Positions 3,428-35,197 of a stretch of DNA of 64,000 nt are shown one piece after another (position 1 is the first letter of the stretch; each line of letters starts with the position of its first letter). Position numbers and translations under genes: made by a program. Under the pieces are notes generated by a model. That model saw only the letters and a list, made by a program, of their open reading frames with translations. It was not told the DNA's origin and did no database searches. Location of the stretch: NCBI GenBank assembly GCA_036394195.1, contig DASWFO010000199.1, positions 6,934-70,933 of the forward strand. Reading direction: 5' to 3'. The DNA is from Alphaproteobacteria bacterium. Its GTDB lineage: Bacteria; Pseudomonadota; Alphaproteobacteria; CACIAM-22H2.

Positions 3428-3795
3428 GCCAATCCCCCTATTTGATTTGAGCCCATGAGTTCTCGACGCAGCGGAACGATCCAATTTTGGAATCGCAAAC
3501 CGTCTCGCCGCGACGCACCCAATACCGGCGACGCCGTTGTGTTCATTCCAAAGGCGTCGTGAAGTTTGCGTGACACCGATGCCGTCGCGGCGCGGCCGCG
3601 AAGGTCAGACAGAGCGATGATGCGCCGCTGGATTTTCGGGTGAGTGCCGGTTCAACCGGTTCGGCGTCGAAGTTATTCCGTCAACCCGTCGAAAAACTTT
3701 GCGCTCCGTCGGCGAATAGTTTTGCGCGGCACGAAGTCTTTTACCAACAGCGTCGATTTAGAGGGGCGTTCGCCATCGGCGGCGGACGAGCGTCA

Positions 3796-8619: not shown

Positions 8620-8811
8620 ATGGTTGCGTCGCGTCTTGTCATTATTGCATTGGGCCTGAGCATGCTTGCCGGCTGCACCTTTCCTCTCACCACGGAGATC
8701 AAGCAGGAATGCGCCGCGTCGACGGATCCGACGGCGTGCGCCAAGGCCAAGTACGCCGCGGAGTTCGCCGAGGAGCGCGAGCGGATCGTGCAGTCCGGGG
8801 GCGGCAATTGA
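8620..8811 (+). CDS. Small lipoprotein, family member 2 (SMLAGC lipobox; EIKQECAASTDPTACAKAKYA motif)
   Basis: ATG at 8620; MVASRLVIIALGLSMLAGC. About 50% identical to the 8361 product over the mature region. Confidence 0.6.
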   Translation: MVASRLVIIALGLSMLAGCTFPLTTEIKQECAASTDPTACAKAKYAAEFAEERERIVQSGGGN

Positions 8812-8833
8812 CGACAACCGGGAGGAGCGGCGA

Positions 8834-9457
8834 ATGAGCTGGAAACGGGGTTCGGAGTATTCGCAAGATCTGCGCGACATGGTGATCGAGACGCCCGGGT
8901 CGGTTCGCGAGGTGGCGAAGCGGTTTGGCGTAAGCCCGGCCTATGTATCGCGGGTCGTGACCCGGCTGCGCCTGACCGGTGGCCGCACGACGAAGCCGCG
9001 CGGCGGCCAACGCAAGCCGATCCTCGCCGGCCGGGAAGACGTCCTGCGCGCGCGCCTTGTCGAGCTTCCGGACACCACGTTGACCGAGCTGCAACGGTGG
9101 TTGATGGATACCCACGGGATCAAGATCTCGATCGGCGCGCTGTGGGGTTCATTGCGCCGGATGGGCTTCGGCACGCGCACGAGTCGCCGGCCCGAGGATG
9201 GCGCACGGCCGACAGCGTCGGAAGGCTTCGTGGCCACAATCGCCGCGCCATCGAAGCGGCCCTTCGTTGACACGCCGGTCACCTACGGCGCAGAGCTGCC
9301 GTCAAGTCTGCGCGAACTGGCACGCCTAGCCATGCAGCCGTCTGCCGAGGAATTCAGAGAGCCCGTGACGTCGATCCTGACAGAAGGTCAGCGTCGGGGA
9401 CCCGGTGAACAGGTCCGCGGTGTTTCACTGCAACCAAGGAGCATTCAGAATGAGTAG
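8834..9457 (+). mobile_element. IS630-family transposase N-terminal HTH fragment (second, diverged copy; C-terminal 80 aa unrelated, no DDE)
   Basis: The start MSWKRGSEYSQDLRDMVIETPGSVREVAKRFGVSPAYVSRVVTRLRLTGGRTTKPRGGQRKPILAGREDVLRARLVELPDTTLTELQRWLMDTHGIKISIGALWGSLRRMGFG aligns with the 3796-4194 product at roughly 65% aa identity. A GGAGGAG RBS is present. Confidence 0.65.
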
Positions 9458-15569: not shown

Positions 15570-17020
15570 CGGAGGGGCGAACATCAAACTCCTGGTTACG
15601 GCTGGCGGTTCCACTCCTCGCGGCGGCCTTGCTTGCCGCGTGCGATATCGGGCCGGACATGAAGCAGCCCGTCGTGGCCGAGCCGCCCGCCTGGCGTGAA
15701 TCGGCGGCGCAGTCCGCTGCCTGGCCGTCGGCCGACTGGTGGCAGGGCTTCGGCTCGGCAGAGCTCGACGGCTTGATCGCCGAGGCGCAGCAGGCAAATT
15801 ATGACCTCGGCGCCGCGGTGGCTCGCATCCGGGAGGCCGACGCGCAGGCCCGTGTCGCCGGTGCGGCTCTGCTGCCGACGGTCGATGCCGGTGGCTCTGT
15901 TTCCAGGCAGCGTGAGCTGTTTCCGCTCGGCCCCCAAGGGCAGACCATCACCTATAATGAATACCAGGTCGGACTGACCGCGTCTTACGAAATCGATTTC
16001 TGGGGCAAGAACCGGGCGGCGCTCAATGCCGCGAAGGCGACCGCGCTCGCCAGCCGCTACGACCAGCAGGTGGTGGCGTTGACGGTCGTCACCGCCGTCG
16101 CGACGAGCTATTTCCAGTTTATCGGGCTCGAGGATCGCCTCAAGGTGGCGCGCGAGAACCTCGCGACGGCGGAGGACGTGCTGAGGGTCATCGAGGGACG
16201 GAGGCAGGTGGGGACCGCCATGGACCTCGATGTGTCGCAGCAGCAGACCGTGGTAGCAAGCTTACGCGCCGCCATCCCGCCGCTCGAACAGCAGCTGTCG
16301 CAGACCCTTGATGCGGTGGCCATCCTCGTCGGCAGGGCTCCGGAGCAGGTGACGATCGCGGAGGCATCGCTTTATGATCTGTCGCTGCCCGCGGTTGCGC
16401 CCGGGCTGCCGTCTGAGCTGCTGGCGCGCCGCCCCGACATCGCCGAGGCCGAGGCGCAGCTGGTCTCGGCGAACGCCAACATCAAAGTTGCGCGGGCGCA
16501 GTTCTATCCGAGCGTCGACCTGACGGCCTCAGGCGGGTTTGCGAGTCTGGCCTTGCGCTCCCTCTTCACCGGTCCGGGCGCGGTGTGGAGTGTCGCGGGG
16601 TCGTTCACGCAGCCCATCTTCGAAGGCGGCCGTCTCAAGGGACAGCTGGAGTTTACGAAGGCGCGCTACGACGAGCTCGTCCAGAACTATCGCAAGGCGG
16701 TCCTCTACGCCTTCGGCAACGTGGAGGACGCGCTGGCGGCGATCCGCCGGACGGGCGAGCAACAGGCGGCCCAGGAGCAGACGGTCGCCGAGGCGCGACG
16801 CTCCTTGGAGATCGCCCGGAGCCGCTACCAGATCGGGCTCACCGATCTTCTGACCGTTCTCAATACCGAAAACGCCTTGTTCCCGGCCGAGGACACGCTG
16901 GTGCAGGTGCGGCTCGCCCACATGCAGGCCCTGGTCAGCCTGTTCAACGCGCTCGGCGGCGGTTGGCAGGCGCCGACCGGCTCCGGCTTCTCGGCCGCCG
17001 CCGCCCGGGAGAAGTCGTGA
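15566..17020 (+). CDS. Efflux transporter outer membrane factor lipoprotein (NodT/OprM family)
   Basis: The ATG overlaps the MFP stop. The lipobox is LLAACDIGP, with typical OMF repeats and a C-terminal ...LFNALGGGW. Confidence 0.85.
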   Translation: MTEGRTSNSWLRLAVPLLAAALLAACDIGPDMKQPVVAEPPAWRESAAQSAAWPSADWWQGFGSAELDGLIAEAQQANYDLGAAVARIREADAQARVAGAALLPTVDAGGSVSRQRELFPLGPQGQTITYNEYQVGLTASYEIDFWGKNRAALNAAKATALASRYDQQVVALTVVTAVATSYFQFIGLEDRLKVARENLATAEDVLRVIEGRRQVGTAMDLDVSQQQTVVASLRAAIPPLEQQLSQTLDAVAILVGRAPEQVTIAEASLYDLSLPAVAPGLPSELLARRPDIAEAEAQLVSANANIKVARAQFYPSVDLTASGGFASLALRSLFTGPGAVWSVAGSFTQPIFEGGRLKGQLEFTKARYDELVQNYRKAVLYAFGNVEDALAAIRRTGEQQAAQEQTVAEARRSLEIARSRYQIGLTDLLTVLNTENALFPAEDTLVQVRLAHMQALVSLFNALGGGWQAPTGSGFSAAAAREKS

Positions 17021-17156
17021 GTTCAAGAGGGCGCGAGCGGACCTAAATCGCGGAACCTTTTGGCGCCGAAAACCTTTGTTGCTGTACCTGGGGTCCCGCG
17101 GATCCGGGCTCCCGGTGTATTTGGCCGCATTCCGCCCTTATCGTCGCAGCCATCTC

Positions 17157-18446
17157 ATGCAGCTTCACCTCGATCCAGTCGGCGGCATCGCCGGCGACAT
17201 GTTTATCGCCGCCGTGCTCGATGCGTTTCCGGAGCAAGAACCGGGGCTGATGGCCAGTCTCCGTGCCGCGCTCGGTGGCCGTGTGGCCGCGCGAGTGCGC
17301 CGGCATCGCGACGCGGTGCTGGAGGGCGCGACGTTTGAGGCGGACGACGCGGGCGAGTCCGGGCGGCACGGCCATTCGGCCGCCGATCCCCATGCGCATA
17401 CCAGCTGGGCCCAGATCCGTGGCACTCTTCTGGCCTCGACGCTCGATCCTTCGGTCAAGCGCGAAGCGGTCGCGATCTTCACCTTGCTCGCCGAGGCGGA
17501 GGGCAAGGTCCACGGCGTCGAGCCGGAAATCGTCGCCTTTCACGAGGTTGGCGCGGTCGATTCCATCGCCGACATCGTCGGTGCTGCGCATCTCATCGTG
17601 TCGCTCGCCGCCACGCGTTGGACCGTCGGCCCGCTGCCGCTCGGGGCCGGCCGCGTGCGCACCGCCCATGGCCTATTGCCTGTGCCGGTCCCGGCGACGG
17701 TGCTGTTGCTGCAAGGCTTCCTCACCCAGGACGACGGCATCGCCGGTGAGCGCGTGACGCCCACCGGTGCTGCGATCGTGCGTCGACTCTGTGCGCCTGC
17801 TGCGGGCACGGCAGAGCGCGGGAACCCCGAGTGCCAGACCGCGGCGCCCCGCCGTCTCCTGCGCAGCGGCATCGGCTTTGGCACCCGTACCCTGCCAGGC
17901 ATCAGCAATTGCCTGCGCGTATTCGCCTTCGACGAAGCCGCCGGGCCCGTCGACACGCCGGTCGCGAATCATCGCGAGCTGGCGGTCATCGAGTTCGAGG
18001 TCGACGATCAGTCGGCCGAAGACCTTGCCATGGGGCTCGACCGGCTGCGTGCGCGCGAGTCCGTGCTCGACGTCGTGCAGATGCCCGTCTTCGGCAAGAA
18101 GGGCCGGATGATGACCCATGTCCGGCTGCTCGCCCGCGCCACGGCGCTGGACGACGCCGTCGCGGCCTGCTTCCGCGAGACCACGACCATCGGCCTTCGC
18201 CACCGCCTGGTCGCTGGCGCAGCACTCAAGCGACGCATCGACGAAGTCGAGCTCGGCAATCGCGTCGTGCGCGTCAAGACGGTCGAGCGCCCGGGTGGCC
18301 GGACAGCCAAGGCCGAGGCTGACGATCTCGTGGCCGCCGCGAGCCAGGCCGAGCGGGCCCGGCTGCGCCACAACGCCGAACAGCGGGCCCTCGACGTGCT
18401 GACACCGGCACGCACAGAATCCGCTGCCGCGGAGAGCGAGGAATGA
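17157..18446 (+). CDS. larC: Nickel-pincer cofactor biosynthesis protein LarC (DUF111 nickel insertase)
   Basis: The N-terminus MQLHLDPVGGIAGDMFIAAVLDAFPE matches the LarC/DUF111 signature. Length is about 430 aa. The listed ORF starts upstream at 17076. Confidence 0.8.
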   Translation: MQLHLDPVGGIAGDMFIAAVLDAFPEQEPGLMASLRAALGGRVAARVRRHRDAVLEGATFEADDAGESGRHGHSAADPHAHTSWAQIRGTLLASTLDPSVKREAVAIFTLLAEAEGKVHGVEPEIVAFHEVGAVDSIADIVGAAHLIVSLAATRWTVGPLPLGAGRVRTAHGLLPVPVPATVLLLQGFLTQDDGIAGERVTPTGAAIVRRLCAPAAGTAERGNPECQTAAPRRLLRSGIGFGTRTLPGISNCLRVFAFDEAAGPVDTPVANHRELAVIEFEVDDQSAEDLAMGLDRLRARESVLDVVQMPVFGKKGRMMTHVRLLARATALDDAVAACFRETTTIGLRHRLVAGAALKRRIDEVELGNRVVRVKTVERPGGRTAKAEADDLVAAASQAERARLRHNAEQRALDVLTPARTESAAAESEE

Positions 18447-19300
18447 CCCTTTTGCGCGACCGCCCCCCGCATGAGTTGGACGATGCTCTGGCATCCGTGC
18501 TCGAGACCCTGGGCGAGATCGCCGTCGCGGTCAGCGGCGGCGTCGACAGCATGACGTTGGCGGAGGTCGCGCATCTCCGCCTGGGCGTCAGGGCTGCCAT
18601 GGTCCACGCCGTGTCACCCGCGGTCCCGCCGGAGGCCACGGCGCGGGTCCGCGACCGCGCCGCGGGGCAGCGGTGGGATTTGACAGTGCTCGATGCCGGC
18701 GAATTTACCGATCCGCGCTATCGGGCCAACCCGGTAAACCGGTGCTTCTTCTGCAAGACGAATCTCTACGGGGCCATCCGTGGCCGGACGCCGCGGCAGA
18801 TCGTGTCCGGCACCAATGTCGACGATCTCGGCGACTATCGCCCGGGCCTCGACGCGGCGCGAGACCATGGCGTGCGCCATCCGTATGTCGAGGCGAGTCT
18901 GACCAAATCGGACGTGCGCCGGCTCGCCGCGCATCTCGGCCTTGGCGACATCGCCGAACTGCCGGCGGCACCGTGCCTGTCCAGCCGCGTCGAGACCGGC
19001 CTGCCGATTCAGCCGGCGACCTTGGGCGTGATCCATGCCGCCGAAAGGCTGGTCGCGGCCGCGCTGTCGCCCCGCACCGTGCGCTGCCGGGTTCGCGCCG
19101 TCGGCATCGTCATCGAGCTCGACCCTGCGGCACTGTCCGGCTTGCGCCCTGAGATCGAGCGCGATCTGCGCCGGTCCCTCGATGGCCTGCTGGCCGAGGC
19201 CGGCGTCTCTGCGCCGGTTGCATTTGCGCTCTACCGCACCGGGAGTGCCTTCCTCCACGCCGCTCCGCGCGGCCGAAGCGACATCACCTCGACCGCTTGA
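18443..19300 (+). CDS. larE: ATP-dependent sacrificial sulfur transferase LarE (PP-loop ATP pyrophosphatase)
   Basis: It has the PP-loop VAVSGGVDSMTLA and the conserved PCLSSR cysteine motif. The start overlaps the larC stop (ATGA). Confidence 0.8.
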   Translation: MTLLRDRPPHELDDALASVLETLGEIAVAVSGGVDSMTLAEVAHLRLGVRAAMVHAVSPAVPPEATARVRDRAAGQRWDLTVLDAGEFTDPRYRANPVNRCFFCKTNLYGAIRGRTPRQIVSGTNVDDLGDYRPGLDAARDHGVRHPYVEASLTKSDVRRLAAHLGLGDIAELPAAPCLSSRVETGLPIQPATLGVIHAAERLVAAALSPRTVRCRVRAVGIVIELDPAALSGLRPEIERDLRRSLDGLLAEAGVSAPVAFALYRTGSAFLHAAPRGRSDITSTA

Positions 19301-19311
19301 GCAAAGCCGCC

Positions 19312-20085
19312 ATGCACGACGTCGTCAACAACGCTCTGACCGGCGCCCCTCCCGAGCCAGAAGTGAGACTCGACTTCGCCCGACGACGCCGCATCGGCAT
19401 GGACGAGGCGATCTATTGCGCATCGAAATCGCCGGCGCAGCTCGCCGCCATTCTCGACGCCGCCGAGGCGCGGGGTGTCGGTCTTCTGCTCACGCGGCTT
19501 GAGCCGTCGATGGTCGCCGGCCTGCCGGACGCTCGCCGGCAACGTCTCGATTACGACCCGGTCTCGCGCACCGGCGTCTTTGGTCCGGCTGGGGTTCCGC
19601 AGGGCGCGCCGCGGGTCGCGATTGTCACCGCCGGAAGCTCGGACGTACCGGTGGCACGCGAGGTGGCGCGCACGCTCCGCTATCATGGTCACGACAGCCG
19701 CTTGTTCGCGGATGTCGGCGTCGCCGGACTGTGGCGGCTGATGGCCTGCATCGAAGCGATCGCGGCGCACAAGGTGGTCATCGTTGCCGCCGGGCTCGAC
19801 GGGGCTCTGCCGAGCGTCGTCGCCGGCCAGGTGCCCGGGGCAGTGATCGCCGTGCCGACCTCGGTTGGCTACGGCGTGGCCGCGGGCGGGCAGGCGGCGC
19901 TCAACGCCGTGCTCGCCAGCTGTGCGCCCGGCCTGACGGTCGTCAACATCGACAACGGCTACGGCGCCGCCTGCGCCGCGTTACGCGTGCTGCGGGCGCT
20001 GGACGCGGTGGCGAGCCCCGCATCCGCGCCGGCGCGATCCGGCCTTGCCGATCTGCCACCTCCGACTTCAGGAGACATCCCATGA
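19312..20085 (+). CDS. larB: Pyridinium-3,5-biscarboxylic acid mononucleotide synthase LarB (PurE-like)
   Basis: The PurE-like core ...RVAIVTAGSSDVPVAREV...VVIVAAGLDGALPSVVAGQVPGAVIAVPTSVGYGVAAGG is present. An alternative TTG start at 19297 overlaps the larE stop. Confidence 0.8.
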   Translation: MHDVVNNALTGAPPEPEVRLDFARRRRIGMDEAIYCASKSPAQLAAILDAAEARGVGLLLTRLEPSMVAGLPDARRQRLDYDPVSRTGVFGPAGVPQGAPRVAIVTAGSSDVPVAREVARTLRYHGHDSRLFADVGVAGLWRLMACIEAIAAHKVVIVAAGLDGALPSVVAGQVPGAVIAVPTSVGYGVAAGGQAALNAVLASCAPGLTVVNIDNGYGAACAALRVLRALDAVASPASAPARSGLADLPPPTSGDIP

Positions 20086-21107
20086 AACGTCGCGACCTCA
20101 TCATGGCTTCCGCCGCGACCGCAGCCGCCACCACGCTGGGGAACGCCGCTTCCGCGCAGCCGTCGGCGCCGGGCGCCCCGACCGGCGCGCCGGGAACCGG
20201 CGCCCAGGGCGGCATGCAATATCGCGCCCTCGGCCGCACCGGCGAGCGCGTCTCTATGGTCGGGGTCGGCGGGTTCCATCTTGGCGCGCCGAGCGAGGAC
20301 GAGGCGATCCGGATCGTCCGCACCGCCCTCGACAATGGAATCAACTTTCTGGACAACTCGTGGGACTACAACAACGGCGTCAGCGAAGAGCGCATGGGGA
20401 AGGCGCTGGCCGACGGCTACCGGTCCAAGGCCTTCCTGATGACGAAGATCGACGGTCGGACCGCCCAATCCGCCACCCAGCAGCTCGATGAGTCGCTGCG
20501 GCGTCTGCGCACCGACCATCTCGACCTCCTGCAATTCCATGAGATCATCCGCATGGAGGACCCCGACCGCATCTTCGCCCAGGGCGGCGCGCTCGAGGCG
20601 GTCTTGCGGGCCAAGGAGGCCGGCAAGCTGCGATATATCGGCTTCACCGGTCATAAGAGCCCGGACATCCACAAGAAGATGCTAGACGTCGCCGCCCGGC
20701 ACAAATTCCACTTCGACACGGTGCAGATGCCGCTCAACGTCATGGACGCGCATTTCCACAGCTTCGAGCGCGCGGTGCTGCCCATCCTGGTACGCGAGGA
20801 GATCGGCGTGCTGGGCATGAAGTCCATGGGCGACAAGACGATCCTGCGCAGCAACACGGTGACGCCGATTGAATGCCTGCGCTACACCATGAGCCTGCCG
20901 ACCAGCGTCACCATTACCGGCATGGACAGCGTGGCCATCCTGCAGCAGGCGCTGACCGTCGCCCGCACGTTCAAGCCGCTCTCGGCACAGGAGCGTCAGG
21001 CGCTGCTCGCCAAGACGGTCACGGCCGCCAAGAACGGCCAGTTCGAGCTCTATAAGACGTCGCAAAACAACGACAGCACAACGACGCACCCGCAGTGGTT
21101 GGGTTAG
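20082..21107 (+). CDS. Tat-signal aldo/keto reductase (periplasmic)
   Basis: The ATG at 20082 overlaps the larB stop (ATGA) and is preceded by AGGAGA. The twin-arginine signal is MKRRDLIMASAATAAATTLGNAASA, and the AKR core is GVGGFHLG...NFLDNSWDY...LDLLQFHE.... Confidence 0.85.
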   Translation: MKRRDLIMASAATAAATTLGNAASAQPSAPGAPTGAPGTGAQGGMQYRALGRTGERVSMVGVGGFHLGAPSEDEAIRIVRTALDNGINFLDNSWDYNNGVSEERMGKALADGYRSKAFLMTKIDGRTAQSATQQLDESLRRLRTDHLDLLQFHEIIRMEDPDRIFAQGGALEAVLRAKEAGKLRYIGFTGHKSPDIHKKMLDVAARHKFHFDTVQMPLNVMDAHFHSFERAVLPILVREEIGVLGMKSMGDKTILRSNTVTPIECLRYTMSLPTSVTITGMDSVAILQQALTVARTFKPLSAQERQALLAKTVTAAKNGQFELYKTSQNNDSTTTHPQWLG

Positions 21108-21293
21108 ATTGCTGCGGCCGAGCAGGGCAAGATCACCCCTGCGCATATCAAACCAAGGTTTGGTTTTATTGAACCCAAGTCATGGTCGAAAAGACTCGAG
21201 TTGGATGGATCGCGGCGGCGCGAACGCTTATCTCACGTTTGCAACGCGACGGACCGTTGGTCCGCGCCACACCCAAAACGTGAGGTTCTTACG

Positions 21294-21536
21294 ATGACTG
21301 CTGTTGCTCGCATGCTTCGCTTCGCCGTGCCGGCGCTGGCTCTTTTGGGCGCGGCCGCCTGCAGCGATAATCACGCCGACCAGCCGACCCGGCTCACCTG
21401 GGACCCCGCCAGCACGACCTATGACGGGACGGGCACCAACGGCGAAACCGATGTCGATGGCGCCGGAGCCGGCGGCCCGCGCGATCCGAACCGGTTACTG
21501 CCGCCGCGGCCGTACACGCCACCGGCGCAGCGCTAG
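21294..21536 (+). CDS. Small lipoprotein (80 aa)
   Basis: ATG at 21294; the signal and lipobox are MTAVARMLRFAVPALALLGAAAC, followed by a T/G/D/P-rich mature part. Confidence 0.5.
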   Translation: MTAVARMLRFAVPALALLGAAACSDNHADQPTRLTWDPASTTYDGTGTNGETDVDGAGAGGPRDPNRLLPPRPYTPPAQR

Positions 21537-21599
21537 CACCGGACGCTGGAACCGCGGAACACCGTAGTCGTTCTGCTTTGCGGCTTGGTGGGTCGCCGC

Positions 21600-21720
21600 T
21601 TCGCTAATGTCCTAGGGAAAAGAATTGCAGTATTGCTTTGGCGAAATTGAGCCTCTGCAATTCTTTTCCGCAGCGGCGACAAGCAGTTAACCTCGGAATT
21701 GCAGAATTGCAGCGGTCTCA
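21600..21720. repeat. Intergenic palindromic repeat element, copy A (nested inverted copies of AAAAGAATTGCAG)
   Basis: The sequence is GGGAAAAGAATTGCAGTATTGC...CTCTGCAATTCTTTTCC...GGAATTGCAGAATTGCAGCGG. The same element occurs in reverse orientation at 38815-38935. Confidence 0.7.
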
Positions 21721-21756
21721 GGGGGGCGGGCGGGGGGCGCGATGGCGGAGCCGAGG

Positions 21757-22767
21757 TCAGCCCTGCATCTCGATGCCGGCGATCTTGACCAGGTCGCGCC
21801 ACTGCTCGATCTCTTTCAGAAGATACGCCTGCGCGTCGTCGGGCGTGCTGATCCAGGGGTCGCTGCCGAAATTGTTGAAGAAGGTCTTCGCGTCTTCGGT
21901 CGCGACGATCTCGCTGAACCACCGGTTCAGCTGCAGGACGAGCGCGTGTGGCGCGCCGGCCGGCAGCATGGCACCCCACCACGACACCAGGTCCATCGGC
22001 ACGCCCTGTTCGGTCATGGTCGGCAGGTCGGGCCGCGCCTGCAGGCGCTGGCCCGAGCTCACGGCCAGGATGCGCGCGCGGCCGGCGGCTTCCTCGCGCA
22101 AGGCAAACACCGGATCGACCGGCGCATAGTCGAGCGCGCCGCTGATCAGCTCGGTCAGCATCTCGTTGGCGGTCTTGTAGACCACCTCGACGGGCTGCAG
22201 CCCGGCCGCGTTCCGGTACAAGGCCCCCATCGCCTTCGCCGACGAGTTCGATGTGCCGTAGGTCGCCTTCTCCTTCTTCGCCGCCATCGCCGCCGTCAAT
22301 TCGGCGAGCGTCGTCCATGGCCGGCCGCTGCCGACTGCGATCATGGTCGCTTGGCGGTTGAAGGTGGCGATCACCAGGAACGCCTGGCCGGCGTCCACCG
22401 AGTTGCGGAACAGATGCATGTTGGCGGCCAGCGCCGTGCCGCCGTTGATGTAGATGGTGCGGCCGTCGGGCTTGGCGCGGGCCACGTACTCGGTGGCGAT
22501 ATTGCTGTAAGCGCCGGGCTTGTTCTCGACGATGATCGGCTTGTCGAAATGGCGCTTCATGCGGTCGGCGAAGAACCGCACGATGGAATCGGCGCCACTC
22601 CCGGCGGGATAGCCGCAGATGAAGCGGACCTCCTGTCCGAACGTGCTCTGCGCCCGCGCGGGGACGGCCCCTAGGGCGGCGCCGGTGACAGCGAGGAGAG
22701 CGGCCGCGACCCGAACAAGCGTCGCCCCGGTCCTGATCGGAGATGCGATCAGGACCGGGAGCGGCAC
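21757..22767 (-). CDS. Tripartite tricarboxylate transporter substrate-binding protein (TctC/Bug family), orphan
   Basis: It has a signal peptide ending ...AVPARA-QS and the mature part FICGYPAGSGADSIVRFFADRMKRHFDKPIIVENKPGA... is typical Bug/TctC. The probable GTG start is near 22767; the listed ORF extends to 23052. Confidence 0.75.
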   Translation of the reverse strand: MPLPVLIASPIRTGATLVRVAAALLAVTGAALGAVPARAQSTFGQEVRFICGYPAGSGADSIVRFFADRMKRHFDKPIIVENKPGAYSNIATEYVARAKPDGRTIYINGGTALAANMHLFRNSVDAGQAFLVIATFNRQATMIAVGSGRPWTTLAELTAAMAAKKEKATYGTSNSSAKAMGALYRNAAGLQPVEVVYKTANEMLTELISGALDYAPVDPVFALREEAAGRARILAVSSGQRLQARPDLPTMTEQGVPMDLVSWWGAMLPAGAPHALVLQLNRWFSEIVATEDAKTFFNNFGSDPWISTPDDAQAYLLKEIEQWRDLVKIAGIEMQG

Positions 22768-22780
22768 GGCGTCGTGCGCG

Positions 22781-24955
22781 TCAGTTGGCGAGCGGATCCG
22801 GGCGGACCTGCACCTTGTAAATGCGCGGCGATTCTTTCGTGCCATTCTCGTTGTGGAACATCGTGCGGGTCCCCGACGTCGTCCACAGGCCCTTGCCCTT
22901 CCAGCCGGCGTTGGGATCGTCGATGCGGCCATCCACGTTCTTGGTGAAGAAGCCGAGCGGGTAGGGCACCCGCAGGTCGACGAGCTTGCCGTCGACGACC
23001 GCCAGCAGCGATTCGCTGCCGTTCGCCTGGGCGACCGGCACGTCGTTGCCAAGCCCGAGCGTATTGAAGCGGTCGACCCAGATGTAATAGGCGTGGTTGG
23101 CGCTGCCCGGATCGCTGACGCCGTTCATCTTAGGTCCGGGCATCTCGTACAGGGTCCAGCCCTCGGGGCAATGCTTGCCGGTGGCCGCGGCCGGGCCGTT
23201 CAGCGGGCCCTTGCACTTGCTGCGGTCGAAGCTGCCGATATGGCCGCTCGAGAAGACCGTCCACACCACGCCCTTGGTGTCGAGGTCGATCCCGCGCGAC
23301 CCGTACGCGATCTCCGGCGGCAGATAGACTTCGGTCAGGGCGGTCTCGGACGGGTTCGAGCCGGGAACCAGCCGCATGATGTAGCCGGGCTGGTCGACGC
23401 GAGAGAACCCGACATCCATCGCCTGACCCCAGATCGAATCGTCCACTGGGCTCGGCTGAATGCCGTAGAACGCGGCCATGATCCGCTTGTCCTTGTTCGG
23501 ATCGAGCGGGTCGTTCGGACCGACCCAGGCGTCGCGCTTGCCGTTGCCGTTGCTGTCGATGATGACCGGCGTCCAGCCTTGCGAGGCCTTCTCGTCGCCG
23601 GTCGCCTCGAACTTCTTCACGTCCAGCCAGCCGACCACGCCGCTTTGCGGGCCGCCGGCGCTGGTCCACAGGGTGCCCTTCTTGTCGAAGTAGAGGTGAT
23701 GCGTGCTGAAGCAAGTGTCGATCAGAGTCCATTTCTGCGTCTTCGGATCGTACATCGACAGCTGCCGCGGCGATTCGTTGAGCGGCGCCACCTTTGCCGA
23801 CGGATGGTCGGAGCCCGCCTTGCAGAAATCGGGGTTCGCGGGCTGACGGATGCGCGCGGTGAACCACACGCGGCCCTTCTCGTCCATCATCGGGTTGTGG
23901 ATGCTGGTGTGGCCGTCCCAGATCGGGTCGTCGCCCCAGTACACCGACGGCCCGTGCGGCAGGTCGAGCGAGGACGGCGTCTTCGGATCTCTGAACGGAT
24001 GCTTGATCTGGGTGGCCTTATTGCTCACCGGGTCGAACACCGGCACCAGATCCGTGCTCTCCTCGGGCGAGCCGTAGATGGCGCCGTTGGCGTTGACGCG
24101 CGGGTTGCGCTTGTCGCTCGAGACCGCGTCGTGCAGGTAGAATTTCGGCGTCGACCAGTCCCAGATGCTGACCACCATGTTGCGCTCGACGCCTTCCGGC
24201 CGCCGCGGCTTGGCCTTCGGCAGCTCGCCCTTTTGAATGCGGGCGGTCCAGTCGGCGTAGAGCTCGACGCCTTTGTCGCCGAGCCGGCCCATGGTCAAGG
24301 CCATGTTGGACATCGCCTGGCCGGATTGCAGGCGGCGCGTCCACTGGTCGATCGGGTCTTTGAACTCGGAGATGAGTTCCTTCGGCATCTGGCGGACACC
24401 GCGGGTGCCGAGCGCGTGGCAGGACTGGCAGGAGTTCTTCACCGTGTCGATCCAGTAGGCCTGGGTCTTCATCACGTCGGGGATGTGATTGCCCTTGTCG
24501 CCGGTACCGGGGAACTCGGACTTGGCCGGGATCTGGATCATCGAATACCAGTACATGCCCGGATAATATTCGGCGGCGGCGGCCTCGCTGGGGGCGGGCA
24601 CGGCGCGCAGGTTCATCAGCTTGCCGGGCTCGGTGTGCAGCTTCGGGGAATCGATGAGGCCGTAGCCCCGGACCCAGATGTCGTATGCGCCCTTCGGCAG
24701 GTCGGGAATGACGTAACGGCCCTGGTCATCGGTGACCACGACCTTGGCGAATTTCGTCGGCAGGTCGCGGGTCTCGGCGATCACCCACACGCCGGCTTCC
24801 GGCCCGTTCGGCCCGCTGACCACGCCGCCGATGTCGTCGGCGTCGATCTTGACCGCCGGGGCGGCTTGTTGCGCGTGTGCCGGGATCGCCGTCGTGCCGA
24901 GCAGGCCCGCCAGCATCGCCGCGAAATAGACATACGCCCGTGTCGTGGTCTTCAT
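22781..24955 (-). CDS. Large secreted protein with CarboxypepD_reg-like N-terminal domain and a CXXCH heme-c motif
   Basis: ATG at 24955 with a GGAGGAGAT RBS. The signal peptide is MKTTTRAYVYFAAMLAGLLGTTAIPAHA. It carries VVTDDQGRYVIPDLPKGAYDIWVRGYG (CarboxypepD_reg) and a single NSCQSCH motif. It is about 724 aa and W/G/D-rich (possible beta-propeller). Confidence 0.6.
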   Translation of the reverse strand: MKTTTRAYVYFAAMLAGLLGTTAIPAHAQQAAPAVKIDADDIGGVVSGPNGPEAGVWVIAETRDLPTKFAKVVVTDDQGRYVIPDLPKGAYDIWVRGYGLIDSPKLHTEPGKLMNLRAVPAPSEAAAAEYYPGMYWYSMIQIPAKSEFPGTGDKGNHIPDVMKTQAYWIDTVKNSCQSCHALGTRGVRQMPKELISEFKDPIDQWTRRLQSGQAMSNMALTMGRLGDKGVELYADWTARIQKGELPKAKPRRPEGVERNMVVSIWDWSTPKFYLHDAVSSDKRNPRVNANGAIYGSPEESTDLVPVFDPVSNKATQIKHPFRDPKTPSSLDLPHGPSVYWGDDPIWDGHTSIHNPMMDEKGRVWFTARIRQPANPDFCKAGSDHPSAKVAPLNESPRQLSMYDPKTQKWTLIDTCFSTHHLYFDKKGTLWTSAGGPQSGVVGWLDVKKFEATGDEKASQGWTPVIIDSNGNGKRDAWVGPNDPLDPNKDKRIMAAFYGIQPSPVDDSIWGQAMDVGFSRVDQPGYIMRLVPGSNPSETALTEVYLPPEIAYGSRGIDLDTKGVVWTVFSSGHIGSFDRSKCKGPLNGPAAATGKHCPEGWTLYEMPGPKMNGVSDPGSANHAYYIWVDRFNTLGLGNDVPVAQANGSESLLAVVDGKLVDLRVPYPLGFFTKNVDGRIDDPNAGWKGKGLWTTSGTRTMFHNENGTKESPRIYKVQVRPDPLAN

Positions 24956-25106
24956 GGCCGATCTCCTCCCCAACCGCAAATGTCGCCGAACCGACTTCGC
25001 CCCCCGGTCTTTAGACCGAGCCTTGACAACAGAGTGCATCTTCCGGGGCTTAGCCGCAAGACCCCCGCAACCCGGACGTGTCCGGTTCGACGCCGCGCGC
25101 GGCTTT

Positions 25107-26609
25107 TTACTCGGCGAGGGGCGGAAGGTTCAGCGCGCGGTCGACCATGGCGGTCGCGCGCTTGAAGTCGTAATTGCGGAAGACGTTGGACTTCACGATG
25201 AACGACGCGCCGCCGTAGAACTTCTCGTATTGCTGGTGCCGGCTGCCGAATTCGGTGCCGACGAAGTCCCACGCGAGGCGCATCAGCGCGATGCGGTCCC
25301 TGGCGCCGGTCGACGCCGATTGGAAGTAGCGCTCGATGTCCTTGGCCGCCTGCGGATTGGCGAAGTCCTTGGCCGAGGAGGGGAGGGTGATCAGGCCGGC
25401 GCCGGAGAGCTCGCGCACGATGTCGATGACGTGCGGGTTGATCTTCGACTGCAGCGCCATGACCGAGTAGAGCGACGCCTGGCTCGGCCACAACACGCCG
25501 TCGTCGTCGATGGTCGCGGTCGCCTCGTGCGAATAGAGCATGTTCTCGACGATGGAGGCGTAGGCGCACAGCTCGCCCATCTCGACCATCACCTGGGGCA
25601 CGGCGTCGTTGCCGGTCGCTTCGTTGAGGCGCTTGGCGATGCCGGCGAGGAAGCGCAGCTTGGTCGCATAGCGCGCCTGCGCCTGATGGTTGCCGTAGAG
25701 ATGCGCCGGCGTCTTGCGCCATTGGTCGCGCGTCAGCTCCACGTTGCGGTAGATGAACACGCGCTCCCACGGCACGAAGCAGTTGTCGAGGACGACGAAG
25801 CAGTCGGTCTCGTCGAAGCGGCTCGACAGCGGATAGTCGTAGGCGTTCGTGGCACCGAGCGCGAAGGGGCGCCGCGCATAAAGCCTGAGGCCCGGATCGT
25901 CGTTCGGAATCGCGACGTTGAATGCATACGCCTCGTCGCCGGGCTGAAGCGGATGGATGCAGGTCACTTGCACGTAGTCGGAATAGACGGCGCCGGTGGC
26001 CAGCTGCTGGCCGCCGGAGAGTGTGATGCCGGAATCGCTTTCCTTGACCACCCCGGCATAAAGCGTCGGATCCTTCTGCTTGTGCGCCGGCTTGCTGCGG
26101 TCGATCTGCGGCGGGACGATCGCATAGCTCACATAGGCGTGGGTGTCGCGGATGTGCCTGTAGAATTTCAGCAGGTTGTCCGCGAATTGCGGCCCGCCGG
26201 CGGCGAAGAACTGCGGCTTGGCGGCGTAGCCGGCGAAGAAATTCGAGACGTGATCGGGCGTTCGTCCCATCAGGCCGAAGCTCTGTTCGGCCCAGGCCTC
26301 GGCCGCGATCCGCTTGGCGCGCAGATCGGCGTGCGAGCGCGGGATCTGGTAGCAGCGCCACACCGGCCCGCCGGTGTCGGGCGAGGTGAAGGTCATCACC
26401 TCGCGATGCTCAGGCGACGCCGCATGATCGAAGAGGTGCGCCAGGGCGCGCGCGCCCTCGCGGAACGCCGGATGATCGACGGGGTTGGTGACCTTCTCGC
26501 CGTCTACATAGATGGCGCGCGGGGTGCATCGGAGATTGGAGAGGAAATCGTTACCGGTCCTAAGGCGTGTTGGTGCGGTCTTGGGCGTACCCGGGCTAGG
26601 CGGCGTCAT
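25107..26609 (-). CDS. 4-hydroxyphenylacetate 3-monooxygenase oxygenase-component (HpaB) family flavin monooxygenase
   Basis: 500 aa. The N-terminus ...TGNDFLSNLRCTPRAIYVDGEKVTNPVDHPAF and the C-terminal acyl-CoA-dehydrogenase-like fold blocks match the HpaB family. No reductase partner is nearby. Confidence 0.7.
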   Translation of the reverse strand: MTPPSPGTPKTAPTRLRTGNDFLSNLRCTPRAIYVDGEKVTNPVDHPAFREGARALAHLFDHAASPEHREVMTFTSPDTGGPVWRCYQIPRSHADLRAKRIAAEAWAEQSFGLMGRTPDHVSNFFAGYAAKPQFFAAGGPQFADNLLKFYRHIRDTHAYVSYAIVPPQIDRSKPAHKQKDPTLYAGVVKESDSGITLSGGQQLATGAVYSDYVQVTCIHPLQPGDEAYAFNVAIPNDDPGLRLYARRPFALGATNAYDYPLSSRFDETDCFVVLDNCFVPWERVFIYRNVELTRDQWRKTPAHLYGNHQAQARYATKLRFLAGIAKRLNEATGNDAVPQVMVEMGELCAYASIVENMLYSHEATATIDDDGVLWPSQASLYSVMALQSKINPHVIDIVRELSGAGLITLPSSAKDFANPQAAKDIERYFQSASTGARDRIALMRLAWDFVGTEFGSRHQQYEKFYGGASFIVKSNVFRNYDFKRATAMVDRALNLPPLAE

Positions 26610-26805
26610 GGGCGCTAAACTGCATCTTCTGCGCCGCACCTGCAAGCCGCGGCCGCGAGCCCGGGAGGGCGATTGGCTTGCATATTGCATTTCACCCGGT
26701 TTTGGGAGTTCCTGGGCGCTTGGCTGCCGTTGCGACCATGTTCACGGCTATGATTTTCCAAACCTTTCCCGCCGGACCGCCGGCATCGCGTCCTTTGGCC
26801 CACCC

Positions 26806-29800
26806 ATGACCATCCACGTCGCCGTGCATCACCGCACAGTCTACCGGTACGACCGCCTGGTGGCACTCGGCCCGCAGGTCGTGCGTCTCCGTCCGGCGCC
26901 GCATAGCCGAACACCGATTCTCAGCTATGGGATGACGGTCCAGCCGAAGACTCACTTCATCAACTGGCAGCAGGACCCGCACGGCAATTTTCAGGCGCGC
27001 CTTGTGTTTCTGGAGAAGGCGCGCGAATTCTCCGTCGATATCGACCTGGTGGCCGATCTCGCCGTGGTGAACCCGTTCGACTTCTTCCTGGAGCCGAGTG
27101 CCGAGAAATTTCCCTTCGTCTACGGCAGCGACGTCGCCACCGACCTCATCCCTTACCGCGAGACCGAGCCAGCGGGCTCGCTGCTCGCCAAATGGCTGAA
27201 GGAGGTGGACCGGACGCCGATGCGGACGACGGACTTCCTGGTGAACCTGAACCGCCGGCTGCAGAAGGACATCTCCTACGTCATCCGCCTGGAACCCGGC
27301 GTGCAGAGCTGCGAGGACACCTTGCACCTGCGCCGGGGCTCTTGCCGCGACAGCGCCTGGCTGCTGGTCCAGATCCTGCGCCATCTCGGCTTTGCAGCGC
27401 GCTTTGTGTCGGGCTACCTCATCCAGCTGACACCCGACGTGAAGCCTCTCGACGGGCCGCCCGGGCCGGAGCAGGACTTCACCGACCTTCACGCCTGGGC
27501 GGAGGCGTTCCTCCCTGGCGCCGGCTGGATCGGGCTCGATCCGACCTCCGGGCTGTTCGCGGGCGAAGGGCACATTCCGCTGGCCGCGGCCCCTGCGCCG
27601 ACCAGTGCCGCACCAATCACCGGCGCCGTGGACGAGTGCGAAGTCGACTTCAAGCACGAGATGACGGTCACGCGGGTTCGCGAAAGTGCGCGGGTGACCA
27701 AGCCCTACACCGACGAGCAGTGGCAGCGCATCGACCGGCTCGGCCGGGCCATCGACCGCGACATCGCGAGGACGGACCTGCGCCTCACCATGGGCGGCGA
27801 GCCGACCTTCGTCTCGATCGACGACATGGATGGCGCCGAGTGGAACACCGCCGCTGTCGGGCCGACCAAGCGCAAGCTGGCCGGCCGGTTGCTGCGGCGG
27901 TTGCAGAAGCGCTGGGCGCCGGGCGCGCTCCTGCATTACGGCCAGGGCAAGTGGTATCCGGGAGAATCGCTGCCGCGCTGGGCGCTCGGCTGTTTCTGGC
28001 GGCGCGACGGCGAGCCGGTGTGGCGCGATCCGACGCTCTTCGCCGATGACGAGACCAAGGGAAATGCCGGTTTCGCCGACGCCGAGCGCTTCGGCGAGAT
28101 GCTGACCCGGCGTCTGCAGATCGACACGTCGTTCCTGGTCACCGGCTACGAGGATGTCTGGCACTATCTGGCGCGCGAGCACCGCTTGCCGGTGAATGTC
28201 GACCCCTTCGAGTCCAATCTGCGCGAGCCCGAAGAGCGGGCGCGGCTGGCGCGGATCTTCACCCAGGGGCTGGATCACCCGATCGGCCTGGCGCTGCCGC
28301 TGCAGCGCGTGCGTGGCTCCGGCGGCGACTATTGGGCGAGCGGGCGCTGGTTCTTCCGGCCCGAGCGCATGTATCTGCTGCCGGGCGATTCGCCGATGGG
28401 GTTGCGCCTGCCCCTTGATTCGCTCCCGTGGGCGAAGGAGGGCGACCAGTCGCAGCACTACGAGCCCGACCCATTCGAGCCGCGCCAGAAGCTGCCGCCG
28501 CGCGCGGCCCTGGCGCAGCCCCATCAGCGCCGCGGCAACGGCCACGGCCGTGACGAGGCGCGTGCCCGGGCTCACATCGCGGGGCAGGGGCCGCCGGCGG
28601 ACCGCCGCGCCAACGGCGAAGCCCCGCCAGGCCTCGGCCAGTCCGCATCCTCATTGGTGCGCACCGCCCTTTGCCTCGAGCCGCGCGACGGCAAGCTTCA
28701 CGCGTTCCTGCCGCCGGTGACCATGCTCGAGGACTATCTCGACCTGGTTGCGGCGATCGAAGACACCGCGGCCGACATCGGCACCCGGATCATCGTCGAG
28801 GGCTACACGCCGCCGCGCGATCCGCGCCTCAAGCAGTTCAGCGTGACACCCGATCCGGGCGTGATCGAGGTCAACATTCAGCCGGCGTCGGACTGGCCGG
28901 AGCTCGTCGACAACACGTCCGTTCTATACGAAGAGGCGCGGGCGACGCGGCTCGGCACCGAGAAGTTCATGCTCGACGGCCGGCATACCGGGACCGGCGG
29001 CGGAAATCATTTCACCCTTGGCGGTTCGACGGCGGCCGATTCACCCTTCCTGCGCCGCCCCGACCTGCTGCGCAGCCTGATCGGCTACTGGCTCAATCAC
29101 CCGTCGCTGTCCTACCTGTTTTCAGGCCTCTATATCGGCCCGACCAGCCAGGCGCCGCGCGTCGACGATGCGCGCAACGATGCCGTCGCCGAGCTGGAGC
29201 TGGCGTTTGCGCAGGTGCCGGAGAACGGCGAGGTGCCGCCGTGGCTCGTCGACCGCATCTTCCGCAATCTCCTGGTCGACGTGACCGGCAACACCCATCG
29301 CACCGAGTTCTGCATAGACAAGCTCTACTCGCCCGACAGCGCCACCGGCCGCCTCGGTCTCGTCGAGATGCGCGCCTTCGAGATGCCGCCGCATGCGCGG
29401 ATGAGCCTCGCCCAGCAGCTGCTTATCCGCGCGCTTCTGGCCGAGTTCGCGCAGCGCCCGTATCGGAAGAAGCTCGTCCGCTGGAATACGCAGCTTCATG
29501 ACCGGTTCCTGCTGCCGCATTTCGTGCGCGACGATTTCAACGACGTGATCGACGAGCTCCGCGTGGCCAGCTACCCGTTCGAGGCGGACTGGTTCGCGCC
29601 GCACTACGAATTACGTTTTCCGGAGATCGGCGCTGTCGCGTATCGCAACATCCATCTCGAGCTTCGCCAGGCGATCGAGCCGTGGCCGGTGCTGGGCGAA
29701 GAGCCGGCCGGCGGCAGCACGGTGCGTTATGTCGATTCGTCGCTCGAGCGCGTGCAGGTGAAACTCCGGAACCTAACCGACGGACGCTACGTTGTGACCT

Positions 29801-30180
29801 GCAACGGCGTCCGCGTGCCGCTGCATCCCACTGGAGCCGAAGGTGAGTACGTGGCCGGCATCCGCTATCGGGCCTGGGCGCCTGCCGCCAGTCTCCATCC
29901 AACCATCGGCGTGCATGCACCACTGGTGTTCGACATCGTGGACACGTGGTCCGAGCGCTCACTGGGCGGCTGCACCTATCACGTGGCGCATCCCGGCGGG
30001 CGCAACTACACGACCTACCCGGTCAACAGCAACGAGGCCGAAGCGCGCCGCCGCGCGCGCTTCTTCCCCACCGGCACCACGCCGGGCCGGGTCGTCGCCC
30101 CGGCGCTGCCGCAAGTCGGCGAGTTCCCGCTCACGCTCGATCTGCGATATGCAGGCGCACAGCTTGCAAAAAACCGCTAG
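26806..30180 (+). CDS. Transglutaminase-family protein, large form (Bact_transglu_N + TGase core + long C-terminal DUF2126-like region), 1124 aa
   Basis: The start MTIHVAVHHRTVYRYDRLVALGPQV is typical of Bact_transglu_N. The transglutaminase catalytic Cys context is RRGSCRDSAWLLVQILRHLGFAARFVSGY. The listed ORF starts at 26512. Confidence 0.85.
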   Translation: MTIHVAVHHRTVYRYDRLVALGPQVVRLRPAPHSRTPILSYGMTVQPKTHFINWQQDPHGNFQARLVFLEKAREFSVDIDLVADLAVVNPFDFFLEPSAEKFPFVYGSDVATDLIPYRETEPAGSLLAKWLKEVDRTPMRTTDFLVNLNRRLQKDISYVIRLEPGVQSCEDTLHLRRGSCRDSAWLLVQILRHLGFAARFVSGYLIQLTPDVKPLDGPPGPEQDFTDLHAWAEAFLPGAGWIGLDPTSGLFAGEGHIPLAAAPAPTSAAPITGAVDECEVDFKHEMTVTRVRESARVTKPYTDEQWQRIDRLGRAIDRDIARTDLRLTMGGEPTFVSIDDMDGAEWNTAAVGPTKRKLAGRLLRRLQKRWAPGALLHYGQGKWYPGESLPRWALGCFWRRDGEPVWRDPTLFADDETKGNAGFADAERFGEMLTRRLQIDTSFLVTGYEDVWHYLAREHRLPVNVDPFESNLREPEERARLARIFTQGLDHPIGLALPLQRVRGSGGDYWASGRWFFRPERMYLLPGDSPMGLRLPLDSLPWAKEGDQSQHYEPDPFEPRQKLPPRAALAQPHQRRGNGHGRDEARARAHIAGQGPPADRRANGEAPPGLGQSASSLVRTALCLEPRDGKLHAFLPPVTMLEDYLDLVAAIEDTAADIGTRIIVEGYTPPRDPRLKQFSVTPDPGVIEVNIQPASDWPELVDNTSVLYEEARATRLGTEKFMLDGRHTGTGGGNHFTLGGSTAADSPFLRRPDLLRSLIGYWLNHPSLSYLFSGLYIGPTSQAPRVDDARNDAVAELELAFAQVPENGEVPPWLVDRIFRNLLVDVTGNTHRTEFCIDKLYSPDSATGRLGLVEMRAFEMPPHARMSLAQQLLIRALLAEFAQRPYRKKLVRWNTQLHDRFLLPHFVRDDFNDVIDELRVASYPFEADWFAPHYELRFPEIGAVAYRNIHLELRQAIEPWPVLGEEPAGGSTVRYVDSSLERVQVKLRNLTDGRYVVTCNGVRVPLHPTGAEGEYVAGIRYRAWAPAASLHPTIGVHAPLVFDIVDTWSERSLGGCTYHVAHPGGRNYTTYPVNSNEAEARRRARFFPTGTTPGRVVAPALPQVGEFPLTLDLRYAGAQLAKNR

Positions 30181-30304
30181 ATTTCTAGGTTAGTTGTCGA
30201 ATCGGAGCGGGCACGCGAACGTGAGACAAGGCCGACCGTCACCGGCTGCCGATCCGGCTGTGCCCAATCCTGGCGCAGCGGCGAGCGACGTGACCGCGGA
30301 TCGG

Positions 30305-32797: not shown

Positions 32798-33666
32798 TGT
32801 ATCGCATCAATCACCGCTCGACTTACACCTACTCGGGGCCGGTTGATCTATCCTATCACCTGCTGCATCTGACGCCGCGGGTGTTGCAGCACCAGCGCGT
32901 GTGGGATTTGCAGATCACCACCCAGCCATCGCCGACGGCGAAGACCGAGCGCAGCGACTATTTCGGCAATCGCCTCACCTATCTCACGGTGGCGCAGCCG
33001 CACGCGAAGTTCACCGTGGAAATGGACGCCGCCGTCGATGTGCGCTTTCCCGCCCCGCCGCACGAGACGGCGACGCCGCCCTGGGAGCGGGTCCGCCATG
33101 CGCTGCGGAGTGCGCGCGAGCCCGACCTGATCGCGGCGGCTGAGTTCTCGTTTGCCTCGCCGCAGACCCCGCCGTCGGCAGCCCTGCTCGCCTATGCCGA
33201 GCCGTCGTTCACGCCCGGGCGGCCGATCTTCGCCGCGGTCAAGGAGCTGACCTCGCGCATCCATCGCGACTTCGTCTTCGAGCCGGGAGCGACCAGCGTC
33301 AGCACGCCGGTCGCCCAGGTGCTGCAGCAGCGCCGCGGCGTGTGCCAGGACTTCGCCCATCTCGAACTGGCGGCGTTGCGCGCCATGGGCGTCGCCGCGC
33401 GCTATGTCAGCGGCTACATCCGGACCTACCACAAGGACAAAGCCGGCCTGAAAGGCAGCGATGCGTCGCACGCCTGGGTGTCGTTCTTCTGTCCCGGCAC
33501 AGGCTGGATCGACGTCGATCCCACCAACGACCTGGTGGTGAAGGAGGAGCATATCGTGCTGGGCTGGGGCCGCGACTACGACGACGTGAGCCCGATCCGC
33601 GGCGTGATGCTGGGCGGTGGCGATCACTTCCTGAACGTCGCCGTGACGGTGACCCCACAGGCCTGA
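32794..33666 (+). CDS. Transglutaminase-family protein, short form (Bact_transglu_N + TGase core), 290 aa
   Basis: The ATG overlaps the upstream stop (ATGA). MMYRINHRSTYTYSGPVDLSYHLLHLTPR... is followed by the catalytic context RRGVCQDFAHLELAALRAMGVAARYVSGY. Confidence 0.85.
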   Translation: MMYRINHRSTYTYSGPVDLSYHLLHLTPRVLQHQRVWDLQITTQPSPTAKTERSDYFGNRLTYLTVAQPHAKFTVEMDAAVDVRFPAPPHETATPPWERVRHALRSAREPDLIAAAEFSFASPQTPPSAALLAYAEPSFTPGRPIFAAVKELTSRIHRDFVFEPGATSVSTPVAQVLQQRRGVCQDFAHLELAALRAMGVAARYVSGYIRTYHKDKAGLKGSDASHAWVSFFCPGTGWIDVDPTNDLVVKEEHIVLGWGRDYDDVSPIRGVMLGGGDHFLNVAVTVTPQA

Positions 33667-33766
33667 CGGAGGTTTTTGCTCGCCGCCGGATGCGACGCCG
33701 GCCGGGACATGGTACGGATATTGCTCCATCCACCATAGAGGCCGCCCCCCGGGGGCGGAAGGGAGA

Positions 33767-35185: not shown

Positions 35186-35197
35186 TGTAGCGAATCA

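Follow-up and report, generated by a model that had tools for sequence, protein, structure and literature searches.

The larC-larE-larB-AKR locus

The locus considered here lies in a 64,000-nucleotide stretch of DNA (hereafter the window), part of an 84.8 kb contig from a soil-type metagenome (ENA ERZ27293319 k141_5590121), and combines the biosynthetic genes of a cofactor, nickel-pincer nucleotide (NPN), with a gene for an aldo/keto reductase (AKR). The contig is named only "Alphaproteobacteria bacterium" at NCBI, and the nearest named matches to its RecA come from Rhodospirillales and Stellaceae metagenome-assembled genomes (MAGs) at 86-89% identity, so that the origin in Bradyrhizobiaceae presumed in an earlier note, which was made from the letters of the window, is unsupported. 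Between positions 17157 and 21107, larC, larE, larB and the AKR gene form four consecutive plus-strand open reading frames (ORFs) arranged head to tail, and profile searches agree with the gene identities and layout given in that note. The genes and their last junction are:

17157-18446, plus strand: larC, nickel insertase (CTP-dependent cyclometallase) with LarC1 and LarC2 fused, 429 aa (PF01969 and NCBIfam matches)
18443-19300, plus strand: larE, PP-loop ATP-dependent sulfur insertase (TIGR00268, 239 bits against a cut-off of 150; SGGVDS motif)
19297 (TTG) or 19312 (ATG) to 20085, plus strand: larB, nicotinic acid adenine dinucleotide (NaAD) carboxylase/hydrolase (NF033503, 244.5 bits against a cut-off of 175)
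20079-20085, plus strand: overlap of the larB stop and the AKR start (ccATGAa), with AGGAG 8 nt before the AKR start
20082-21107, plus strand: NphT-like AKR-fold protein, 341-aa precursor, proposed nickel-pincer client (PF00248, match to PDB 9YEB, AlphaFold2 model)

The assignment of the three cofactor genes was checked with profile hidden Markov models (HMMs), and all three score above the curated NCBIfam cut-offs. LarC matches PF01969 over residues 3-399 (3.7e-87, 293 bits) as well as the separate models for LarC1 (TIGR00299, 170 bits, cut-off 90) and LarC2 (NF052512, 96.7 bits, cut-off 50). The possibility that larB is really purE was ruled out, as it reaches only 26.3 bits on the purE model TIGR01162 (cut-off 149.6) and passes the LarB model. 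In LarE, the translation contains the SGGVDS motif together with CFFC...PCLSS, a CXXC-C triad; the cysteine of PCLSSR that the earlier note had singled out is thus present, but it belongs to this triad and is not a lone feature. The CXXC-C motif marks the non-sacrificial, [4Fe-4S]-type LarE exemplified by Thermotoga maritima (PMC9283937). Judged by this motif, the window LarE is probably of the catalytic [4Fe-4S] type and not of the sacrificial Lactiplantibacillus plantarum type, and the NCBIfam label "sacrificial" is probably wrong for it.

The three cofactor genes had also been described as overlapping. This holds for larC and larE, which share a true ATGA overlap; larE and larB overlap only if larB starts at TTG 19297, and the public call at ATG 19312 leaves an 11-nt gap. 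The larB and AKR genes, too, are joined by a real ATGA overlap, with a Shine-Dalgarno sequence before the AKR start. Promoter and terminator scans of 16800-21800 gave nothing beyond chance and folding of the 78 nt 3' of the AKR stop gave no signal (z = -0.01), and the operon boundaries are therefore drawn from gene spacing only.

The AKR as a candidate nickel-pincer enzyme

The earlier note had reported that no larA gene, the source of the LarA-family enzymes that use this cofactor, lies in the window, and both Pfam and an iterated HMM confirm it. Every remaining window ORF of 340 aa or more (20 in all) was scanned with Pfam, without a match to PF09861. The second search started from L. plantarum LarA (sequence identical to PDB 5HUQ), which was expanded to an iterated HMM because single-sequence searches missed distant homologues (in loci L145 and L162), although the outcome for the window was unchanged. 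As a control, this HMM recovered 18 LarA ORF segments in 17 control loci; run on six-frame translations, it gave no match in the window, the contig flank or any of the AKR loci described below. Precomputed Pfam calls for the parent contig, which extend to 8.5 kb left of the window, likewise include no LarA, the genes there encoding sigma-70, Rieske, VIT1, histidine kinase and flagellar export proteins. When the Pfam scan, the LarA HMM and the flank calls are combined, the LarA-free span exceeds 20 ORFs on either side of larC. Separately, one of the relatives contains a distant LarA-like ORF after larC (L145:8826-10100) that the iterated HMM matches weakly (E 0.0066).

An arrangement of this kind has been described by Semersky et al. 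(Nat Chem 2026; PMC13524815), who found that AKR homologues encoded beside larB, larC and larE in the absence of larA bind the nickel-pincer cofactor (NPN, also known as the nickel-pincer mononucleotide, NPMN), and who counted 427 PF00248 AKRs that adjoin larBCE with no larA within 20 ORFs. Their characterized example, NphT of Alicyclobacillus cellulosilyticus, is an NPMN-dependent hydride transferase that binds the mononucleotide covalently (+450 Da), and the K200A substitution abolishes binding (PMC13524815). In the 1.3 Å structure (9YEB), K200 tethers the cofactor through a thioamide, H144 coordinates the nickel, and the AKR tetrad D47/Y52/K75/H106 is kept (PMC13524815). A further mark of NphT-like AKRs is a capped cofactor cavity that leaves no space for the AMP moiety. 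NphT does not use NAD(P)(H); it disproportionates aldoses to lactone and alditol and catalyzes transhydrogenation between sugars and aldehydes (PMC13524815). The same paper notes that the His/Lys motif is absent from characterized NAD(P)H-dependent AKRs, that some AKR homologues may bind the nickel-pincer adenine dinucleotide (NPAD) or bind the cofactor non-covalently, and cites an NPAD-dependent ornithine cyclodeaminase.

When the window AKR is analyzed in the context of these results, its closest solved relative proves to be NphT. A phmmer search matches residues 45-312 to chain positions 4-281 of 9YEB at E 8.5e-32 (the chain index is the published NphT numbering plus 3), whereas the best canonical AKR reaches 6e-20 and is matched over the N-terminal half only. 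The match to PF00248 (7.5e-31) covers profile positions 2-194 of 291, much as NphT covers 2-200, and none of the NCBIfam AKR models comes near its cut-off. In both phmmer and MAFFT alignments, D91, Y96, K122 and H153 fall on the NphT tetrad D47, Y52, K75 and H106, and the two residues that hold the cofactor in NphT also have counterparts:

20652-20654, plus strand: codon of His191 in the motif T189-G190-H191, equivalent to NphT T142-G143-H144 (nickel ligand), from phmmer to 9YEB and MAFFT
20820-20822, plus strand: codon of Lys247 in the motif M246-K247, equivalent to NphT I199-K200 (tethering Lys), from phmmer to 9YEB and MAFFT

Two further NphT cofactor contacts, T142 and I199, are thereby matched by T189 and M246. 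The canonical AKRs 8scc and 9w6y have Leu at the position of His191. All six residues (D91, Y96, K122, H153, H191 and K247) are invariant in the 120 closest database homologues, and of 61 full-length representatives (38-65% identity), 53 have both the His and the Lys. According to the earlier note, use of NPN by such an AKR was not known, which left the consumer of the cofactor unclear; this view is outdated given the published experiments (PMC13524815) and these diagnostic residues.

The AlphaFold2 model of the window AKR (mean predicted local distance difference test score, pLDDT, 84.8) is an AKR TIM barrel. A Foldseek search of the model against the PDB returned canonical AKRs only, at template modelling (TM) scores of 0.65-0.75, from a library (to 2026-04-08) that predates 9YEB; for this predicted structure, the result confirms the AKR fold and does not separate an NPN type from an NADPH type. 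At its C-terminus the protein is extended by about 30 residues, which are conserved in its clade and missing from NphT. This extension could cap the cofactor site. Within residues ~319-341 (21036-21104), the clade-conserved positions are G319, E322, K325, D331, T333, P337, W339 and L340.

We then considered the gene context of the relatives. A scan of metagenome contigs with the window LarB returned 80 loci, in 15 of which an AKR with the His/Lys pair adjoins larB (in 12 it follows larB directly, on the same strand), and 10 of these larB-adjacent AKRs belong to the subfamily of the window AKR at 51-61% identity. The tetrad, His and Lys are all kept in those that cover these positions; the AKR of locus L096 ends before His and Lys. 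LarA is present in 17 of the 80 loci, often in the slot after larB, a count that is a lower bound because distant LarA proteins such as that of L145 were nearly missed. No locus among the 80 has both AKR and LarA (hypergeometric probability of zero overlap, 0.018). A second AKR subfamily, at ~30% identity to the window AKR, also occurs directly after larB (L096:3499-4032 and L104:777-1991); its N-terminus is of the Tat type (MxDRRDFLRMG), and the L104 protein has GMSGH and AMK motifs.

In the reverse direction, AKR relatives were sought over one genome per species and the best 80 loci were examined. Relatives occur in at least 591 species genomes, and 687 clusters at 50% identity match the window AKR at E<=1e-30. 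Among the best 80 loci, three have lar genes within 10 kb, and these come from different phyla: in a Chthoniobacterales locus (L076) the order is larC-larE-larB-AKR and the ATGA junction of the window recurs; a Terriglobales MAG (CAZONJ010000001.1, L006:10001-14818) encodes a Tat-AKR, a NicO nickel permease and larE-larC-larB; and Nostoc linckia (L017) has larC 3 kb from the AKR. The permease scores 30.7 bits on PF03824 (cut-off 27.7) and has an HX4DH motif, so that a nickel importer gene separates the AKR gene from those for the cofactor. No conserved partner gene was found around the best 80 AKR loci, and the neighborhoods thus give no hint of the substrate.

These data bear on whether the gene after larB might simply encode an ordinary NAD(P)H-dependent AKR, with the cofactor serving a LarA-family enzyme elsewhere in the genome. 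Such an arrangement would fit a metagenome contig, where the rest of the genome is out of view, and LarA genes are often unlinked from larBCE; it would also fit the 77 orthologous loci among the best 80 that have no lar gene within 10 kb. Nevertheless, we consider it unlikely. His191 and Lys247 are invariant and form a motif absent from characterized NAD(P)H-dependent enzymes (PMC13524815), the closest solved relative is NphT and not a canonical AKR, and the C-terminal third of the canonical profile is unmatched. The mutual exclusivity of AKR and LarA beside larB, across 32 loci, and the recurrence of the ATGA coupling in a different phylum (L076) also argue against it, as does the lack of a periplasmic NAD(P)H pool for an enzyme whose export uses twin-arginine translocation (Tat).

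Alternatively, another, unrecognized protein encoded in the window or close to it may be the client of the lar genes, and the AKR would then have nothing to do with nickel. The NPAD-dependent ornithine cyclodeaminase (PMC13524815) offers a precedent, and 29 larB relatives with enough downstream sequence had neither AKR nor LarA at first screening, although the iterated LarA search moved two of the 29 to the LarA group, one of them weakly. Clients of other kinds, or clients not linked to larB, therefore exist. In the window, the lar genes are coupled to the AKR gene alone, the downstream genes (TctC, a 752-aa protein and HpaB) are convergent, and the operon upstream is not conserved beside larC, which together make such a client very improbable. 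Because of the NphT match, the conserved residues and the AKR/LarA context, we suggest that the AKR is likely the consumer of the cofactor made by the operon.

Proposed twin-arginine signal and mechanism

The window AKR differs from NphT in having 44 residues ahead of the barrel, which the translation divides as follows:

20082-20156, plus strand: proposed Tat signal peptide MKRRDLIMASAATAAATTLGNAASA, cleavage before Q (K-R-R-D-L-I, Ala/Thr-rich h-region, ASA followed by Q)
20157-20213, plus strand: Pro/Gly/Ala linker QPSAPGAPTGAPGTGAQGG up to residue 44, followed by the barrel from Met45

Residues 1-44 are disordered in the AlphaFold2 model, and the codons of this region have a coding-type GC content at third positions (GC3 0.86). 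A motif of the form RRx(F/L/I)(L/I) precedes the AKR domain in 73 of the 80 genome loci, in at least 82 of 120 close homologues, in ~36-39 of the 61 full-length representatives (38-65% identity) and in 11 of the 12 AKRs that follow larB directly, the second subfamily included. On the Tat signal model TIGR01409 (cut-off 16.7), orthologues lie at 16-26 bits and several pass. The earlier note described a periplasmic AKR with a Tat signal; a Tat-type motif is visible and is clear in most relatives, but the window copy itself falls below the cut-off, at 12.9 bits. The pattern suggests that the AKR would receive its cofactor in the cytoplasm and leave it as a holo-protein.

The pathway in which LarB, LarE and LarC make the cofactor is established, and from it a working scheme for the locus can be proposed. 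In the cytoplasm, LarB would carboxylate and hydrolyze NaAD, LarE of the CXXC-C [4Fe-4S] type would convert the two carboxylates to thiocarboxylates, and LarC would insert nickel. The AKR would then act as the client, with the cofactor tethered to Lys247 and the nickel bound by His191, and cofactor loading and folding would be completed in the cytoplasm before the holo-enzyme is exported to the periplasm by the Tat system. There, the tetrad D91/Y96/K122/H153 would provide acid/base catalysis and the bound pyridinium would serve as a non-dissociating hydride carrier between an alcohol (or hemiacetal) and a carbonyl, in a redox-neutral ping-pong reaction that needs no free NAD(P)H. We therefore propose, with a probability of about 0.72, that one operon both makes and uses NPN/NPMN, that the AKR encoded by its last gene is the client, and that the holo-enzyme is Tat-exported.

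Several observations weigh against this proposal. The identity between the window AKR and NphT is 30%, and the NphT cofactor contacts W218 and Y219 are unmatched, with T and V aligned in a gapped loop. No nickel transporter was seen among the window ORFs scanned, most AKR loci lack nearby lar genes as described above, and a LarA elsewhere in the source genome is possible given that the source is a MAG contig. As regards export, the signal of the window copy scores below the TIGR01409 cut-off, its motif has L-I in place of the consensus F-L, and translation starting at Met45 would give a cytoplasmic AKR.

The last of these points leads to a further alternative, in which the AKR does use a nickel-pincer cofactor but is cytoplasmic, through a non-working Tat signal or a Met45 start, or binds NPAD or binds its cofactor non-covalently. 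Besides the low signal score, some homologues, a minority, begin at the domain itself and have no signal (P0035, P0066, P0106-108 and L144), and some AKR homologues may bind NPAD or bind non-covalently (PMC13524815). However, ATG 20082 is preceded by a good Shine-Dalgarno sequence and coupled to the stop of larB, the N-terminal codons are of coding type, Tat motifs are kept across phyla in most relatives, and the tethering Lys is present, which favors covalent NPMN. We therefore regard this variant as rather unlikely. Against all three alternatives stand the motif, the pattern of best hits, the mutual exclusion of AKR and LarA and the recurrence of the coupling in other phyla.

On its sequence features, the AKR/LarBCE locus is of an already published kind, and what lies beyond the main text of PMC13524815 is the predicted Tat signal and the extent of the clade in which it occurs: that text contains no mention of twin-arginine, periplasm or signal peptide, and a literature search for nickel-pincer with twin-arginine, or LarB/C/E with periplasm, found nothing relevant. 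It is an even question whether the large, mostly soil-bacterial clade of apparently Tat-exported His/Lys AKRs to which the window AKR belongs represents the first extracytoplasmic nickel-pincer enzymes, acting as a self-contained periplasmic hydride shuttle. If this is true, a tethered nickel-pyridinium would stand in for the NAD(P)H that the periplasm lacks, and the enzyme would be the nickel counterpart of Zymomonas glucose-fructose oxidoreductase (GFOR).

For the window, the proposal that the AKR is the client means that the operon supplies its own cofactor-consuming enzyme and that a missing larA need not be invoked; the AKR gene and its clade should then lose their annotation as NAD(P)H-dependent reductases. 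Confirmation of export would place nickel-pincer chemistry in the periplasm, establish a new class of cofactor-loaded Tat cargo and explain how an AKR works in a compartment without nicotinamide cofactors. The compact larC-larE-larB-AKR operons of the window and of Chthoniobacterales, together with the AKR-NicO-larECB locus of Terriglobales, are tractable loci for such tests.

Surrounding genes and comparison with known systems

Upstream of larC lies an efflux operon of resistance-nodulation-division (RND), membrane fusion protein (MFP) and outer-membrane factor (OMF) genes, which ends 136 nt before larC, directly upstream of the lar operon as the earlier note had it. A functional link between the two was rejected and their adjacency treated as coincidental, as an RND pump was not found beside larC in any relative. 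Homologues of the window pump (46-50% identity) lie within 10 kb of a Tat-AKR in 4 of the 80 genome loci (L045, L053, L060 and L065), which is probably chance. On the other side of the operon, an 81-aa ORF follows the AKR gene (21291-21536, plus strand; a public gene call). Its N-terminus (LLGAAAC) resembles that of a protein with a signal peptide or of a lipoprotein, and neither Pfam nor the related loci gave a match to the ORF. The 752-aa protein farther downstream (22781-25039, minus strand), whose gene is flanked by those for a TctC-family binding protein and an HpaB-type flavin monooxygenase, looks secreted and has a CQSCH haem-c-type motif, with no Pfam family above its cut-off (CarboxypepD_reg is weak, at 22.7 bits against 32.3).

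Two other regions of the window deserve mention. At 26512-36232 (plus strand), two successive sets of transglutaminase-N/DUF2126, circularly permuted ATP-grasp and Alpha-E genes form a duplicated cluster. The plus-strand ORFs at 3640-4194 and 8660-9457, which flank flagellin and porin genes, have weak transposase-like N-terminal matches to HTH_23/HTH_33 and may be insertion-sequence remnants.

Among known systems, NphT is the closest to the window AKR. The two share the PF00248 TIM barrel, the tetrad, the His of TGH and the Lys of (I/M)K, a partial match to the Pfam AKR profile, and a place next to larB, larC and larE, around which larA is absent over 20 ORFs. They differ in the 44-residue N-terminal extension with its twin-arginine motif and the ~30-residue C-terminal extension, both carried by the window AKR, in the unmatched W218/Y219 and in overall sequence, at 30% identity.

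LarA (PF09861; PDB 5HUQ) resembles the AKR in its proposed role, being a client of the LarB/LarE/LarC pathway that holds the cofactor through a Lys thioamide and a His-Ni bond, and in related loci its gene takes the place after larB that the AKR gene has here. In contrast, its fold is unrelated and there is no sequence similarity, as seen from the absence of any LarA HMM match in the window. The chemistry differs too: LarA racemizes or epimerizes 2-hydroxy acids intramolecularly, whereas the NphT-like AKRs would transfer hydride between molecules.

Canonical AKRs, such as AKR14A1/YghZ and the L-galactose dehydrogenases, have the fold (Foldseek TM 0.65-0.75) and the catalytic tetrad in common with the window AKR, but match it more weakly, over the N-terminal half only, and 8scc and 9w6y have Leu at position 191. 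Their location is the cytoplasm and they require free NAD(P)H, unlike the enzyme proposed here.

For an exported AKR of this kind, the nearest functional analogy is found in Zymomonas mobilis GFOR and the Caulobacter aldose-aldose oxidoreductase (AAOR), in which NADP is tightly bound, does not dissociate and is loaded before export. Both are periplasmic sugar oxidoreductases with Tat signals (PMC4628093). The comparison is a working analogy only, which rests on the redox-neutral shuttling of hydride between sugars (aldose to lactone plus alditol): GFOR and AAOR are Rossmann-fold proteins in the Gfo/Idh/MocA family that use NADP and have no lar genes, whereas the window AKR would combine an AKR barrel with a nickel-pincer cofactor made by the genes beside it.

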